Shown here: positions 6,705-63,520 of the stretch, piece after piece | Layout: the number at the start of each line of letters is the position of its first letter | Position numbering within the stretch: position 1 is the first letter of the stretch | Virus record (IMG/VR): IMGVR_UViG_3300049740_002155 | Reading direction: 5' to 3' (one strand) | DNA length: 64,000 nt | Source: a virus | Lineage: Duplodnaviria > Caudoviricetes | Position numbers and translations under genes: made by a program | The notes under the pieces: generated by a model | What the model was told of the DNA's origin: nothing | Databases searched by the model: none | The model's input: only the letters and a program-made list of their open reading frames with translations

Positions 6705-7358
6705 ATGTACGATTGGAAATTTGAGAAAGCAAACGGTGAACCCACTTCTCCTAAAAAGAAAGTAACACCACCAAAAAAGAAAGTTACAGCAAAAAAGGCT
6801 GCTGATACTGGTTCTATGGACACGGTTGAAGGAGATGATAATATCATTTATTTTTATGCCGGTGTTTCTATGAAAGAAAACTTTACCCTCAACAAAGAGA
6901 TTTCAAGACTTGATCGTGAAATGCAAATGATCTCGATGAAACTTGGATTAAAAGTTCCAATTCCTATTCATTTGAGAATTAATAGTTATGGTGGTAGTGT
7001 ATTCGCCGCATTTAGTAGTATTGATTACATGAACCAAAGCAAGACACCTATATATACGTATATTGATGGTTGTGCGGCTAGTGCAGGAACTATCATGAGT
7101 GTGTGTGGTGACCAAAGGTTTATTGGTGAAAATTCTTATATGCTTGTCCACCAACTTAGTTCTGGTATGTGGGGTAAATATCAAGAACTTCAAGATGATA
7201 TGAAGAACTCTGATAATTTGATGAAACGCATCAAAGAAATCTATGAATCAAAAACCAAGATTCCTAAAACGAAAATGGATGAGATACTCAAACATGACTT
7301 GTGGTGGGATGCACGTACTTGTTTAAAGTATGGTCTTGTAGACGAAATTCTTACTTAA
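6705..7358 (+). CDS. clpP: ClpP-like serine protease (S14 family)
   Basis: INSYGGSV, GCAASAGT (catalytic Ser), MLVHQ (His), HD (Asp), YGLVDEI. Confidence 0.9.
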   Translation: MYDWKFEKANGEPTSPKKKVTPPKKKVTAKKAADTGSMDTVEGDDNIIYFYAGVSMKENFTLNKEISRLDREMQMISMKLGLKVPIPIHLRINSYGGSVFAAFSSIDYMNQSKTPIYTYIDGCAASAGTIMSVCGDQRFIGENSYMLVHQLSSGMWGKYQELQDDMKNSDNLMKRIKEIYESKTKIPKTKMDEILKHDLWWDARTCLKYGLVDEILT

Positions 7359-7680: not shown

Positions 7681-8739
7681 TTATTTAGTCTTTCTATATA
7701 AGTCTAAAATACTTTTTTGTTCTAAACTTATATTCTTGGGAAATTTTGGTTTTATCATTACATACATATCACCTTTAGTACTTCCATTCCTAAGATTGGG
7801 CAATCCATAATTGTTAATTCTTAGAACCGACTCTGGTTGGGTACCTGCGGGTATCTTTAAATTTACTTTTCCGTATAATGAGTTTATTGTTTTTGTGTGA
7901 CCTAATATCATATCATAAAAATCTATGTGTTCTTCACAAACCAAATGGTCACCGTCTCTGTCAAAATACTCATCTTTTTTTACATATATTACTGCATACA
8001 AATCTCCAAATTCTCCACCCTTCGCATAATTTCCATAATTAGATACTCTTAATTTTACCCCGGAGTGACATCCCTTTGGAATTTTAATACGGGTTTCTAC
8101 ACTTTCACTTTGCACTCCTTTTCCACTGCATTGAACACAACCTCCGTGCAATTCACTACCAGAACCTTCGCATACTGGACATATTTGTTCCATTTGCATG
8201 GGTCCCATTCTTCGGTAAACTGCACCTCTACCTCCACACTGTTTACATGATTTGTATGTAGAAGAACTTGTTTCACCAGTTCCATTGCAACTTCCACATT
8301 TTCCGTTTCTATTAAACTTAATTGTTCTATGAACATCATCTACGATCTCACTCAATTTTACTTCTATATCTATTTTTAAATCAGAACCTTGTGTTTGTCT
8401 TCTTCTTTTTCTGTTATCGGATGTAAAAAAACTATCAAAGTTCCCACCACCACCTCCGAAAAATGAATTAAACATATCAAACGGGTCAGAGTGAAATCCA
8501 CCTCCTCCACCACCTTGTTGGAAAGCCGCATGACCAAATTGATCATATTTTGCTCGTTTCGTGGTGTCTGATAAAATATCATATGCTTCTGAAATCTTTT
8601 TAAAGTGTTCTTCTGCATTAGCATCACCTTTATTTTTATCTGGATGCCACTTTATTGCTAGTTTTCTATATGCCTTTTTGATTTCATCTTGTGTAGCAGT
8701 TTTTGATACACTTAAAATATTGTAATAATCTTCACTCAT
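7681..8739 (-). CDS. dnaJ: class I DnaJ co-chaperone
   Basis: J domain with HPD, G/F-rich region, four CxxCxGxG zinc-finger repeats, C-terminal IPAGTQ. Confidence 0.97.
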
Positions 8740-13241: not shown

Positions 13242-13268
13242 AAGTATTTTAGATTATATTTATATAAA

Positions 13269-13312
13269 GATAATGCTCAACGGAGATTGTCTAGAATGCT
13301 CAAACGAGATTC
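13269..13312 (+). promoter_or_regulatory. tandem bulged-G hairpins in the dnaK leader (putative cis-regulatory RNA)
   Basis: gataat-G-ctc-aacg-gag-attgtc (13269-13291) and gaat-G-ctc-aaac-gag-attc (13294-13312); same architecture as the hsp20 leader. Confidence 0.7.
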
Positions 13313-13347
13313 AAACAAAACTAACAAAATAAAAAGAGGAATAAAAA

Positions 13348-15279
13348 ATGGCTAAAGTAATTGGCATTGATTTAGGTACATCGAACAGTTGTGTTGCGGT
13401 GGTAGAAGCAGGAGAACCAAAAGTGATAACCAACTCAGAGGGAGCAAGAACTACCCCAAGTATAGTTGGATTTGCAAAAGACGGAGAAAGACTTGTAGGT
13501 CAATCCGCAAAAAGACAAGCAGTCACTAATCCAGAGAATACAATTTTTTCTGCGAAACGTTTAATCGGAAGAAAATACAAGGAAGTAAAAAACGAAGTTA
13601 AAAATCTTCCCTATGAAGTTGTCTCGGGTAAAAACGGAGATGCTTATATTAAGTGTAAAGAAGGTGACGAAGAAAAAGAATATGCACCTGAATTCATTTC
13701 AAGTATCATTCTGAGTAAACTTAAAGCAGATGCAGAAGCATATCTTGGTGAGGAGGTAAAACAAGCAGTTGTTACAGTACCTGCTTACTTTAACGATTCA
13801 CAAAGACAAGCAACTAAAGATGCAGGTGAAATCGCAGGACTTGAAGTGTTGCGTATCGTCAACGAACCAACGGCTGCATCTCTTGCCTATGGATTAGAAA
13901 AAAAGAACGAAGAAACAATCGCAGTTTATGACCTCGGTGGTGGAACTTATGATGTTTCTATTTTAGAAATCGGAGACGGAGTATTTGAAGTTAAATCTAC
14001 CAACGGTGACACTCAATTGGGTGGTGACAATTGGGATGAAACTCTTATTCAATATTTGTTAGATGAATTTAAAAAAGATTCTGGAATTGATTTAAGTGGT
14101 GACGGACAAGCAATGCAACGTCTTAAAGAAGAAGCTGAAAAAGCAAAAGTTGCTTTATCGTCAAGTGCTTCCACCACAATTAATCTTCCGTTTATTACTG
14201 CGGATGCAAGTGGTCCTAAGCATTTGAATGTAGAAGTTACTCGTTCAAAGTTTGAACAAATTTGTGATCCTCTTTATACTCGCACAAAAGAACCATTTGA
14301 AAAATGTCTTGATGATGCGGGTATCACAATGAGTGAAGTTAAAAATCTAATTCTCGTTGGTGGGATGACTCGTAGTCCTAAAGTTGTTGAGATAGCAAAA
14401 GAACTTGCAGGTGGTAATGATCCACACCAAGGAGTTAATCCAGATGAGGTAGTTGCTTTGGGTGCGGCTATTCAAGGTGCTATATTAGCAGGAGACGAGG
14501 GTGTAAGTGATGTTTTGTTGCTTGATGTAACTCCTCTTACTCTTGGAATAGAAACTGCCGGTGGAGTGTCTACACCGATGATTGAACGCAACACTACAAT
14601 TCCAACAAAAAAGTCGCAAATATTTACAACCGCAGGTGATAATCAACCAGCAGTTGATATTGTAATTCTTCAAGGAGAACGAGCAATGTCTGTTGATAAT
14701 AAAAAACTTGGTACATTCAAGTTAGATGGAATTCAACCTGCACCAAGAGGTACTCCACAAATTGAAGTTACATTTGATATTGATGCAAATGGTATTCTTA
14801 ATGTAAGTGCTACTGATAAGGGTACAGGTAAAGATCAAAAGATTACAATTAGTGATTCTAGTGGTCTTGACAAAGAAGAAGTTGAACGCATGAAAGCAGA
14901 TGCTGAAAAGTATGCTGACGAAGATAAACAAAAGAAAGAAGGAATCGAACTTCGTAATCAAGTAGATTCCACCGTTTATCAAATTGAAAAAATTCTTGAG
15001 GAAAACAAAGAAAAGATTCCTGAAGAAGAATCAAAGCAAATAAGTGAACTTCTTGAAGATGTTAAAAAGCAACTTGAGAATACTTCACTTGAAAGTGATA
15101 AATTGAAAGAACTTAATTCTTCTTTGATGGAACAACTCCAAAAACTTGCTCCACATATGCAAGCAGAGCAAGAAAGTGCTACTCCGGAAGACGAACCATC
15201 TACTACTGAGTCCGAAGATGTAGTGGATGCTGACTTTGAAGTTGTTGATGAAGAAGAAAAGGAAGAAACTAAAAAGTAG
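13348..15279 (+). CDS. dnaK: Hsp70 chaperone DnaK
   Basis: [42 protein letters not shown], full substrate-binding domain; AGAGGA SD. Confidence 0.98.
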
Positions 15280-33678: not shown

Positions 33679-33753
33679 GCATCGGTGGCGGAATGGTGAC
33701 GCAAGGGACTGCAAATCCCTACCATGCAGGTTCGAGTCCTGTCCGATGCTCCA
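33679..33753 (+). tRNA. tRNA-Cys(GCA)
   Basis: acceptor gcatcgg/ccgatgc, anticodon arm aggga-ctGCAaa-tccct, GTTCGA T loop, U73, encoded CCA. Confidence 0.95.
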
Positions 33754-33766
33754 TAATCAATTTATT

Positions 33767-33842
33767 GCCACCTTAGCTCAGCTGGTAGAGCACCTGATTT
33801 GTAATCAGGATGTCGTCGGTTCGATTCCGACAGGTGGCTCCA
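33767..33842 (+). tRNA. tRNA-Thr(TGT)
   Basis: acceptor gccacct/aggtggc, anticodon arm cctga-ttTGTaa-tcagg, encoded CCA. Confidence 0.95.
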
Positions 33843-33853
33843 TTTTAATGTGT

Positions 33854-33930
33854 CGGGATATAGCGTAGCCTGGTATCGCGCTTGCTTTGGGAGCAAGAGG
33901 TCGCAGGTTCAAATCCTGCTATCCCGACCA
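33854..33930 (+). tRNA. tRNA-Pro(TGG)
   Basis: acceptor cgggata/tatcccg, anticodon arm cttgc-ttTGGga-gcaag, encoded CCA. Confidence 0.95.
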
Positions 33931-33933
33931 AAT

Positions 33934-34010
33934 GTCCACATCGTCTAGTCAGGTCAGGACACCGGGTTTTCATCCCGGCAACCGGAGTTCGAGTCTCCGT
34001 GTGGATGCCA
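33934..34010 (+). tRNA. tRNA-Glu(TTC)
   Basis: acceptor gtccaca/tgtggat, anticodon arm ccggg-ttTTCat-cccgg, encoded CCA. Confidence 0.93.
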
Positions 34011-34066
34011 ATTTTTTATATAAATGTATATGTATATAAATGCGTATATATACATACAATACTCTT

Positions 34067-34142
<76 letters not shown>

Positions 34143-62181: not shown

Positions 62182-62850
62182 ATGAAAAATTATACCGAAT
62201 CTGAATTAGAAGAAAACTATAAGGCATTTTTAAAGTTTATAGAAGATACCTTTGAAGGTGAACGACAAGAAAAGTTGTTATATATGTACGGAACAGACGA
62301 TGGTTGTCTTGGGTTGCGGGCATTAATTGCACCTGCAAGTGGAACAATACATTACCATAATTGCTATGATGGTGGTTATATTGATCATGTTATGAATGTG
62401 TGTAAAGCAGCCATGGGTCAGAAAGTTCTACTTCAGAGTTTAGGTGCGAGAATTGATTTTACTGATGATGAATTGATGTTTTCTGCTCTTAATCACGATC
62501 TTGGAAAATTAGGATCACTTGACGGTGAACAATATCAACGTAACGATAGTGAGTGGCACGTCAAAAATCAAGGTAAGGTTTATAAAATGAACACAGACTT
62601 ACACTGGATGGGTGTGACAGACAGAAGTTTATTTCTATTACAACACTTTGAAATAAAGTATAATCAAAAAGAGTGTTTAGCAATCAAACTATCAGACGGA
62701 ATGTATGATGATGCTAATATTGACTATCTAAAATCATTTAATCCTGGCAATGGTCTTAAAACAGAACTTCCACGGGTTGTTCACTGGGCAGATCATATGT
62801 CGTGTGTTTTAGAGAAATCACTAACAGACCAAAACTTTAAGTTTGAATAA
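62182..62850 (+). CDS. HD-domain phosphohydrolase (YhaM-like)
   Basis: APAS..HYHNCYDGGYIDHV, LNHDLGK, HWAD. Confidence 0.85.
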   Translation: MKNYTESELEENYKAFLKFIEDTFEGERQEKLLYMYGTDDGCLGLRALIAPASGTIHYHNCYDGGYIDHVMNVCKAAMGQKVLLQSLGARIDFTDDELMFSALNHDLGKLGSLDGEQYQRNDSEWHVKNQGKVYKMNTDLHWMGVTDRSLFLLQHFEIKYNQKECLAIKLSDGMYDDANIDYLKSFNPGNGLKTELPRVVHWADHMSCVLEKSLTDQNFKFE

Positions 62851-62856
62851 AAAAAT

Positions 62857-62885
62857 TTGACATTATTATACTTTTTTAGTATATT
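62857..62885 (+). promoter_or_regulatory. sigma70-type promoter of hsp20
   Basis: TTGACA-N17-TATATT; the -10 overlaps TATTTAT. Confidence 0.7.
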
Positions 62886-62894
62886 TATTTTATA

Positions 62895-62943
62895 GAGTAA
62901 TGCTCAAATGAGGTTACTCGGCGGATGCCCAAATCGGGATTCG
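62895..62943 (+). promoter_or_regulatory. tandem bulged-G hairpins in the hsp20 leader (putative cis-regulatory RNA)
   Basis: gagtaat-G-ctc-aaat-gag-gttactc (62895-62919) and cggat-G-ccc-aaatc-ggg-attcg (62922-62943). Confidence 0.72.
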
Positions 62944-62968
62944 TAACTATAATAAAAGGAAAAATAAA

Positions 62969-63463
62969 ATGAAAAAGTTCGGATATAAGTCCAACGGAAC
63001 AGGACTTGATAAACACGTTCCAAATTTAAGAGACGAATTTTTAACACCATTCGACTCAATTTTTGACAAAGTAGTCAATCAAGCATTTCCAAACTTCGGA
63101 CAGGAATTCGGAGTAAATTTTTTTGGAAATAGTTCGTACCCACGGGTGAATGTAGCAGACACAAAAAACGATGTAAGAATTGAAGCAGAAATTGCAGGTC
63201 TTTCACGTGATGATGTTTCTGTTGAATACGAAGACGGTCTTCTTATCATTTCGGGTGAAAAGAAAACTGAAATTGAGGATCCAGAAGTAAAGTATGTTTA
63301 CAAGGAACTAAAAAGGTCTTCCTTTAAACGATCATTCAAAGTCGATGACGCAACACTTGAGGTTGATAAAATATCAGCAAAGTTTGACAATGGCATTCTA
63401 AATGTTACTATTCCAAAAAAAGAAGTAATTGAAACAAAAGCAAAGAAGGTTAAAATTCTCTGA
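62969..63463 (+). CDS. hsp20: small heat-shock protein Hsp20
   Basis: YPRVNV..., EIAGL..DV.V.YEDGLL.ISG, SFKRSF, ISAKFDNGILNVTIPK. Confidence 0.95.
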   Translation: MKKFGYKSNGTGLDKHVPNLRDEFLTPFDSIFDKVVNQAFPNFGQEFGVNFFGNSSYPRVNVADTKNDVRIEAEIAGLSRDDVSVEYEDGLLIISGEKKTEIEDPEVKYVYKELKRSSFKRSFKVDDATLEVDKISAKFDNGILNVTIPKKEVIETKAKKVKIL

Positions 63464-63487
63464 AATAGAATAATATAAACTTAACTT

Positions 63488-63520
63488 AAAGAGGGTAAAC
63501 AAAATTTACCCTCTTTTTTT
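63488..63520 (+). terminator. intrinsic terminator after hsp20
   Basis: aaagagggtaaa-caaaa-tttaccctcttt plus T tract. Confidence 0.85.

Follow-up and report, generated by a model that had tools for sequence, protein, structure and literature searches.

A conserved pair of bulged-G RNA hairpins in the dnaK and hsp20 leaders of a phage, resembling ROSE hairpin I and probably not a thermometer

The DNA analyzed, hereafter the window, is a 64,000-nt stretch of the 161-kb viral record IMGVR_UViG_3300049740_002155. Two chaperone genes reside on its plus strand, dnaK (Hsp70, 643 aa; 13348-15279; PF00012, E 2.7e-255) and hsp20 (alpha-crystallin small heat-shock protein, 164 aa; 62969-63463; PF00011, E 2.7e-19). 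DnaJ (7681-8739, minus strand) and ClpP (6705-7358, plus strand) are also encoded by the phage, the dnaJ leader being plain, about 30 nt long and located after a TATAAT-like box; a cluster of five tRNAs is found at 33679-34139 (Rfam scores 58-74 bits). A TATATTTAT promoter-like box (13255-13263, plus strand) precedes dnaK, transcription presumably starting at about 13267. Upstream of hsp20, a sigma-70-type promoter (TTGACA-N17-TATATT, 62857-62888, plus strand; 11 of 12 matches), with a putative start at about 62892, overlaps another TATATTTAT box at 62880-62888. The hsp20 gene is taken as monocistronic because it is followed by a terminator-like stem plus T-run (63488-63520, plus strand), read by eye from the context without a terminator-scan score.

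Both leaders contain two adjacent hairpins, all four of the same design: a lower stem of 4-7 pairs ending at the top with A-U, A-U and U-R, a single bulged G on the 5' side, an upper stem made up by C-G, Y-R and C-G, and a loop of 4-5 nt with A as first residue. All lie on the plus strand. Hairpin A of the dnaK leader, (A)GAUAAU-G-CUC-AACG-GAG-AUUGUC(U), spans residues 13268/9-13291/2 and features a 7-bp lower stem, the bulged G at 13275, a CUC/GAG upper stem and the loop AACG (25.2 bits with R2, the covariance model of the single hairpin). Hairpin B, GAAU-G-CUC-AAAC-GAG-AUUC, spans 13294-13312, with a 4-bp lower stem, the bulged G at 13298, the same CUC/GAG stem and the loop AAAC (27.1 bits, R2). 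In the hsp20 leader, hairpin A, GAGUAAU-G-CUC-AAAU-GAG-GUUACUC, covers 62895-62919 and has a 7-bp lower stem, the bulged G at 62902, CUC/GAG and the loop AAAU (32.3 bits, R2); hairpin B, CGGAU-G-CCC-AAAUC-GGG-AUUCG, covers 62922-62943 and has a 5-bp lower stem, the bulged G at 62927, CCC/GGG and the loop AAAUC (30.9 bits, R2). Hairpin A starts 5-6 nt past the TATATTTAT box, and hairpin B ends 35 nt before the ATG of dnaK and 25 nt before that of hsp20. The pattern ATGCYC-N4-5-GRGRTT occurs four times in the window, 0.04 matches being expected, and the whole 161-kb record holds the same four sites only. Sequence reading, pattern counts and minimum free energy folds thus agree on the four bulged-G hairpins of one architecture that the original prediction had placed here, and the distances it had given, from box to hairpin A and of 25-35 nt from hairpin B to the ATG, hold on direct reading.

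The minimum free energy fold of each leader consists of exactly two tandem hairpins followed by an unpaired tail. The tail is an A-rich, unstructured spacer, located on the plus strand at 13313-13347 for dnaK (SD AGAGGA at 13334-13339, ATG at 13348) and at 62944-62968 for hsp20 (SD AAGGA, ATG at 62969). The mean probability of residues being unpaired in the dnaK spacer is 0.66-0.80 between 10 and 45 °C, according to an ensemble fold model. The two tails are alike from hairpin B to the ATG (AACUAA...AAAAUA...RGGA), and this common A-rich sequence could be a translation-enhancing or S1-binding stretch.

The TATATTTAT box is a general promoter-like box of the phage, separate from the hairpin element. 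The box is found 20 times in the window, vs. 2.8 expected (example sites are 926, 15355, 34365 and 37576, and 29232 and 51826 on the minus strand), and 42 times in the 161-kb record. The TATTTAT motif named in the original prediction is this general box, not specific to the chaperone genes. A same-strand ORF follows 38 of the 42 boxes, and 18 of these ORFs start -2 to +7 nt from the box; many mRNAs of the phage would therefore be leaderless, or nearly so. The word TATAAATA, known from T4 late promoters, was discarded as a promoter, being enriched only as the reverse complement of TATATTTAT, in the wrong orientation for the genes. If the box acts as a -10 element, 13267 and 62892 would be the approximate starts, with hairpin A 1-3 nt beyond; given such starts, dnaK and hsp20 would stand out for leaders of about 80 nt. 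Contigs from RNA libraries (four runs) cover the interval 62903-63476, hairpin B included. Contig ends differ (62903, 62928), contigs cannot reveal 5' ends, and DNA may be present in RNA libraries; the lack of RNA contigs over 62620-62902, next to several over 62903-63476, was hence taken as no evidence on the start site.

Two covariance models, R1 for the tandem unit and R2 for the single hairpin, were used to scan the phage genome and the window. R1 recovered the two tandem sites at 76 and 58 bits, the next best match scoring 14; R2 recovered the four known hairpins at 25-32 bits, the next best scoring 12. No further copy, tandem or single, was found in the genome or in the window by either model; only the dnaK and hsp20 leaders score, and the absence of the element before dnaJ and clpP, noted in the original prediction by reading, is borne out by the same scans. 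Among 2.9 million viral contigs, the full tandem pattern fits 40 stretches, and 37 of these lie before dnaK or hsp20 on contigs of this phage family. The strict tandem form is absent from 185,579 cellular genomes (one per prokaryote species), the 20 raw pattern matches obtained there being chance direct repeats or coding sequences which do not fold alike. R1 detected only noise (E 0.001-0.05) in 151 Bacteroidota genomes. A host origin was dropped, the element having been found in none of the cellular genomes searched (185,579 by pattern, 151 Bacteroidota by R1). A looser version of the tandem pattern was swamped by chance matches in the collection scan. No Rfam family was matched at threshold by the window leaders, and nothing relevant emerged either at the gathering score or at E ≤10 and E ≤5. 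Likenesses to CtsR boxes and to GGA-loop sites of CsrA were dropped on reading, spacing and loops being unfit.

Relatives of the window leaders were collected from viral contigs by protein searches, which yielded 41 hsp20 and 6 dnaK loci. Tandem hairpins are present in nearly all of them, and the Hsp20 proteins of the phage family are 79-90% identical. In an alignment of 34 distinct leaders the drawn structure is 98.7% paired, and 7 of the 18 pairs underwent changes on both sides; pairing dropped to 31-53% in controls in which partners were slid by 1-3 columns, and RNAalifold, unaided, gives the same fold. The claim that lower stems differ in sequence and stay paired, first made on four hairpins, extends in this way to 34 leaders. 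Pairing rises to 99.2% when 49 distinct single hairpins are considered. The outer two pairs occur as 5-6 pair types each; no variation is seen in the inner six pairs, the bulge or the 2-nt linker. Besides the bulged G, four upper pairs (A-U, U-R, C-G, C-G) belong to the invariant part, and 13 core positions are constant across the 49 hairpins, on two genes. The flanking intergenic DNA is unalignable between the same contigs that keep the hairpin cores, and an invariant core in such surroundings points to selection acting on the sequence as well as on the shape.

About 74 cells of the 34-leader alignment are G-U pairs (UG in 26 of 34 leaders and GU in 15 of 34 at single positions, for example), and each of them would become an A-C mismatch in a fold of the opposite strand or in a DNA palindrome. 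These cells and the invariant, one-sided G indicate that the structure is a sense-strand RNA, not a DNA palindrome or an antisense fold. As read from the alignments, the element is a conserved, covarying sense-strand RNA structure, common to the dnaK and hsp20 leaders only.

More distant phages were reached by a search with the Hsp20 alignment. R1 locates the hairpin, in the same place, before hsp20 genes whose products are 49% and 27-31% identical to that of the window (E 5e-6 and 0.009). Leaders L259-268 have one such hairpin, with a 13-nt core (AAU-G-CUC...GAG-GUU) identical to that of the window, followed by ACUU-G-CU...AG-GAGU, which covers the SD. In leaders L250-256 a tandem pair is found about 80 nt before hsp20; the first bulge is A in place of G (GAAGU-A-CUC...GAG-GCUUC), the pair under the bulge alternates between U-G and C-G, and the SD is free as in the window. 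L258 features two hairpins in swapped order; the same record (IMGVR_UViG_3300015610_000999) encodes, at 468-890 and just upstream of the hsp20 leader, a tRNA along with a tmRNA that passes the Rfam threshold at 71.5 bits. The window family, the L250-256 group and L258 are alike in having two or three hairpins of the upstream type and a free SD. The cultured cyanomyoviruses S-ShM2, P-RSM1, S-SCSM2R, ACG-2014d and S-BM3 (L269-L273) have a ROSE-like leader of two hairpins some 90 nt ahead of hsp20. The first, with a bulged G, is capped by a UUCG loop; the second, CUC-G-CUU...AAG-GAG, covers the SD and is the anti-SD/SD hairpin of ROSE elements, as in E. coli ibpA and ibpB. The single-hairpin model R2 does not detect the cyanophage or the L250-256 hairpins, and the L259 leader had no match in GenBank phage DNA.

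Leaders L259, L266 and L270 repeatedly scored about 21 bits against ROSE_3 (RF02523), short of the gathering score of 43 bits; E was 0.015 when the search was targeted. Hairpin I of ROSE_3, according to the Rfam consensus and structure lines, is a bulged-G hairpin (GAU-G-CCG-AAgU-CGG-GUC), and hairpin B of the hsp20 leader (GAU-G-CCC-AAAUC-GGG-AUU) is the nearest of the four to it, the comparison being with the Rfam consensus line only. The motif does have relatives: it shares the design of ROSE_3 hairpin I and is also found, as a single copy or in tandem, before hsp20 of distant phages. The kinship suggested with ROSE_3 derives from sub-threshold scores and from the Rfam consensus line. Searching 151 Gammaproteobacteria with the ROSE_3 family gave no match anywhere; a pattern allowing two mismatches gave thousands of chance matches in 401 genomes, three candidates being checked without an Rfam match; and a plasmid search for ROSE_3 members returned rhizobial small heat-shock proteins, none from Pseudomonas. 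No paper was found in the literature on ROSE-like leaders in phages, that of the cyanomyoviruses included. The window leader may be viewed as a derived form of the ROSE-like, two-hairpin leader which many phages place on hsp20.

Hairpin I and hairpin II have been set apart in Pseudomonas, where temperature is sensed by hairpin II only; hairpin I stays unmelted from 20 to 50 °C, is dispensable for thermoregulation, and is conserved in sequence without an established function, its role being 'not fully understood' (PMC3669281). The window carries two copies of the non-sensing part of ROSE, on two genes. It is probable that the phage sets the pair on dnaK and hsp20 as a shared protein-binding or stabilizing handle, not as a thermometer. 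The interpretation preferred here, held tentatively and with a confidence somewhat short of even, is that of a shared post-transcriptional handle at the 5' end of the two mRNAs, most plausibly bound by the phage Hsp20, which would come with protection of the 5' end. The dnaK and hsp20 mRNAs would begin, 1-3 nt past the putative start, with two adjacent bulged-G stem-loops; the SD-masking thermosensor hairpin would have been replaced by two stable copies of the hairpin I type, after which the A-rich region for ribosome binding is left free. The hairpin pair would be read in a sequence-specific manner by a factor acting in trans, probably dimeric or oligomeric. Such a reader is suggested because no change is seen in the upper six pairs, in the bulged G or in the 2-nt linker, the lower stems covarying freely; that the spacing is fixed and that only two chaperone genes carry the pair likewise argues for a specific partner.

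The phage Hsp20 itself would be the best candidate for this factor, acting like E. coli IbpA, because the gene for the small heat-shock protein is the only one which always travels with this hairpin type, in bacteria as in phages of very different hosts. Aggregates would titrate Hsp20 away and tie dnaK and hsp20 in one feedback loop, the signal sensed being proteotoxic stress, not temperature. The 5'-terminal hairpins would also shield the mRNAs from 5'-end-dependent decay, a second, simpler effect. In this scheme we infer where transcription starts, that a binding factor exists and what it is, and which way regulation goes. Arg93 of IbpA is required for RNA binding; in a BLASTP alignment (24% identity) residues E92-R93 of IbpA face R116-S117 of the phage Hsp20, which places an Arg adjacent to, not at, the aligned site. 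IbpA binds stem-loops in the leaders of ibpA, ibpB and rpoH and represses translation of these mRNAs, and aggregates titrate it away (bioRxiv 10.1101/2020.04.20.050740; PMC10410725; PMC10474464); it did not act on the E. coli dnaK 5' UTR, and the RNA features it recognizes are undefined, without a known motif (PMC10410725). The leaders controlled by IbpA and those of the window are alike in being multi-stem-loop leaders of heat-shock genes. One small heat-shock protein, titrated by aggregates, controls several chaperone-related mRNAs in E. coli, and by analogy a parallel arrangement may be proposed for the window. In contrast, the ibpA, ibpB and rpoH leaders mask the SD, which the window leaders do not, and E. 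coli dnaK is not a direct target of IbpA.

A further, rather unlikely reading regards the bulged-G stem-loop as an RNA operator that can be moved from gene to gene and is recognized by the phage small heat-shock protein, or by some other chaperone-titratable RNA binder. Both messages, hsp20 and dnaK, would have their tandem operators occupied by free Hsp20 oligomers; once misfolded proteins drew Hsp20 off, the two chaperones would rise together. If true, this would amount to a virus-carried, temperature-independent proteotoxic-stress regulon, and would explain the long-unexplained conservation of hairpin I in bacterial ROSE-like leaders.

Ordered by weight, the rival explanations run from a 5'-end stabilizer to a thermometer, and then to a DNA operator and a functionless relic. 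The hairpins might only block RNase attack dependent on the 5' end and lengthen the life of the mRNA, with no specific partner. This is rather unlikely as a full account, and has in its favor the position of hairpin A about 1-3 nt past the putative start, the folded state predicted for the hairpins up to 45 °C or more, and the role proposed by Krajewski et al. for the stable hairpin I, along with the long-lived ibpA mRNA (PMC3669281). A stem alone would do for such a task, yet 49 hairpins on two genes, in which the outer pairs drift, all agree at 13 core positions, in the bulged G and in linker length; moreover, other phage genes lack the element, and many seem nearly leaderless. Stabilizers of the ompA type are stem-loops set a few nt from the 5' end, with no sequence-specific core. 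The window hairpins would be similar in lying within a few nt of the 5' end, if the start is placed correctly, and differ by their sequence-specific core.

The original prediction spoke of a protein-binding or thermosensing RNA. Protein binding stays, by analogy, the best reading; thermosensing is made unlikely by the fold model, in which the SD is free and the hairpins are folded between 10 and 45 °C. A thermometer would work by melting, which would free an internal SD-like GAGG or GGGA and an AUG, and thereby a heat-controlled upstream ORF, or would influence the ribosome-binding site in another way. In support of this, the design is that of ROSE hairpins, and relatives do have true SD-masking hairpins; hsp20 hairpin A has GAGGU on its 3' side, 11 nt upstream of the invariant AUG in hairpin B; and the ORF opened by this AUG stops no more than 5 nt from the main ATG in 18 of 29 hsp20 leaders, and reads into it in frame in 5 of 29. 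The functional SD and AUG lie, however, in an unpaired A-rich stretch (mean P(unpaired) 0.62-0.86 over 10-45 °C in both leaders), SD accessibility is predicted to be nearly flat over the same range, P(unfolded) is at most 0.03 at 45 °C for every hairpin in the model, and melting is predicted above 55 °C. The free SD and the high predicted melting temperature make a thermometer role unlikely. Nor does the upstream ORF keep to one frame (frames 2, 0 and 1 in 19, 5 and 5 leaders); dnaK copies end at scattered places, stops are common in the A-rich spacer anyway, and the AUG is absent from some homologous hairpins; a leader peptide initiated at the hairpin AUG was rejected on the same count of frames in 29 hsp20 leaders. 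Taken together, these points leave the thermometer a quite improbable explanation.

Imperfect inverted repeats past a promoter could also bind a transcriptional repressor at the DNA level, as CIRCE binds HrcA. The arms of CIRCE form a perfect 9-bp DNA palindrome and are separated by 9 nt; like the window element, it is an inverted repeat located between promoter and chaperone gene start. The position, the tandem sites, the nature of the genes and a superficial GCTC...GAG likeness to CIRCE would fit. The one-sided extra G and the abundant G-U pairs, A-C on the other strand, would instead break a DNA palindrome, the window element having the bulge and the G-U pairs of an RNA-type helix; the flanking stems covary without conservation of sequence, as expected for a folded strand and not for protein-DNA contacts. 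The consensus TTAGCACTC-N9-GAGTGCTAA is unmatched by the window hairpins, with their bulge, G-U pairs and loops of 4-5 nt, and the initial statement that the element is not CIRCE was correct. A DNA operator is very improbable, and the same applies to a functionless remnant of a ROSE-like leader kept by descent, which would agree with the loss of the thermosensing hairpin and the closeness of the family (Hsp20 79-90% identical), and is at odds with invariant cores and compensatory stem changes in otherwise unalignable intergenic DNA, and with the independent retention of the element on two genes separated by about 50 kb.

The phage leaders provide a natural separation of functions, in which a stem-loop of the hairpin I type is duplicated, constrained, detached from SD masking and placed on two chaperone genes. 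The question of the role of hairpin I becomes testable with a 50-nt RNA and one 164-aa protein. Phages with an Hsp70 and a small heat-shock protein of their own would appear to co-regulate the two after transcription, without a heat-shock sigma factor.

ROSE elements are textbook RNA thermometers, in which the 3'-proximal hairpin pairs the SD with U(U/C)GCU and features a bulged G. The window leaders belong to the 5' UTR of a small heat-shock gene and have two stem-loops, the range in ROSE being two to four; they lack the 3'-proximal hairpin pairing with the SD, and fall short of the gathering score. ROSE_3 in the leader of Pseudomonas ibpA and the window element are alike in consisting of two adjacent hairpins before a small heat-shock gene, and hairpin I is close to the window hairpins in being a stable 5'-proximal stem with a single 5' bulged G, a 3-bp upper stem of C/G pairs and a tetraloop starting with A. 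Unlike ROSE_3, the window leaders have no U(U/C)GCU anti-SD hairpin, the SD being free 10-25 nt further down, and score below the Rfam reporting level; both hairpins are of the hairpin I type, dnaK carries the element too, and the element is phage-borne and AU-rich. The hsp20 leaders of distant phages share with the window the design of the first hairpin and its position directly past the promoter and before hsp20, whereas the L259-268 group and the cyanophages keep an SD-masking hairpin of the CUC-G-CUU/AAG-GAG type. The combination of a free SD and a duplicated hairpin of type I is a newly described form, absent from Rfam, of the ROSE-like leader class.
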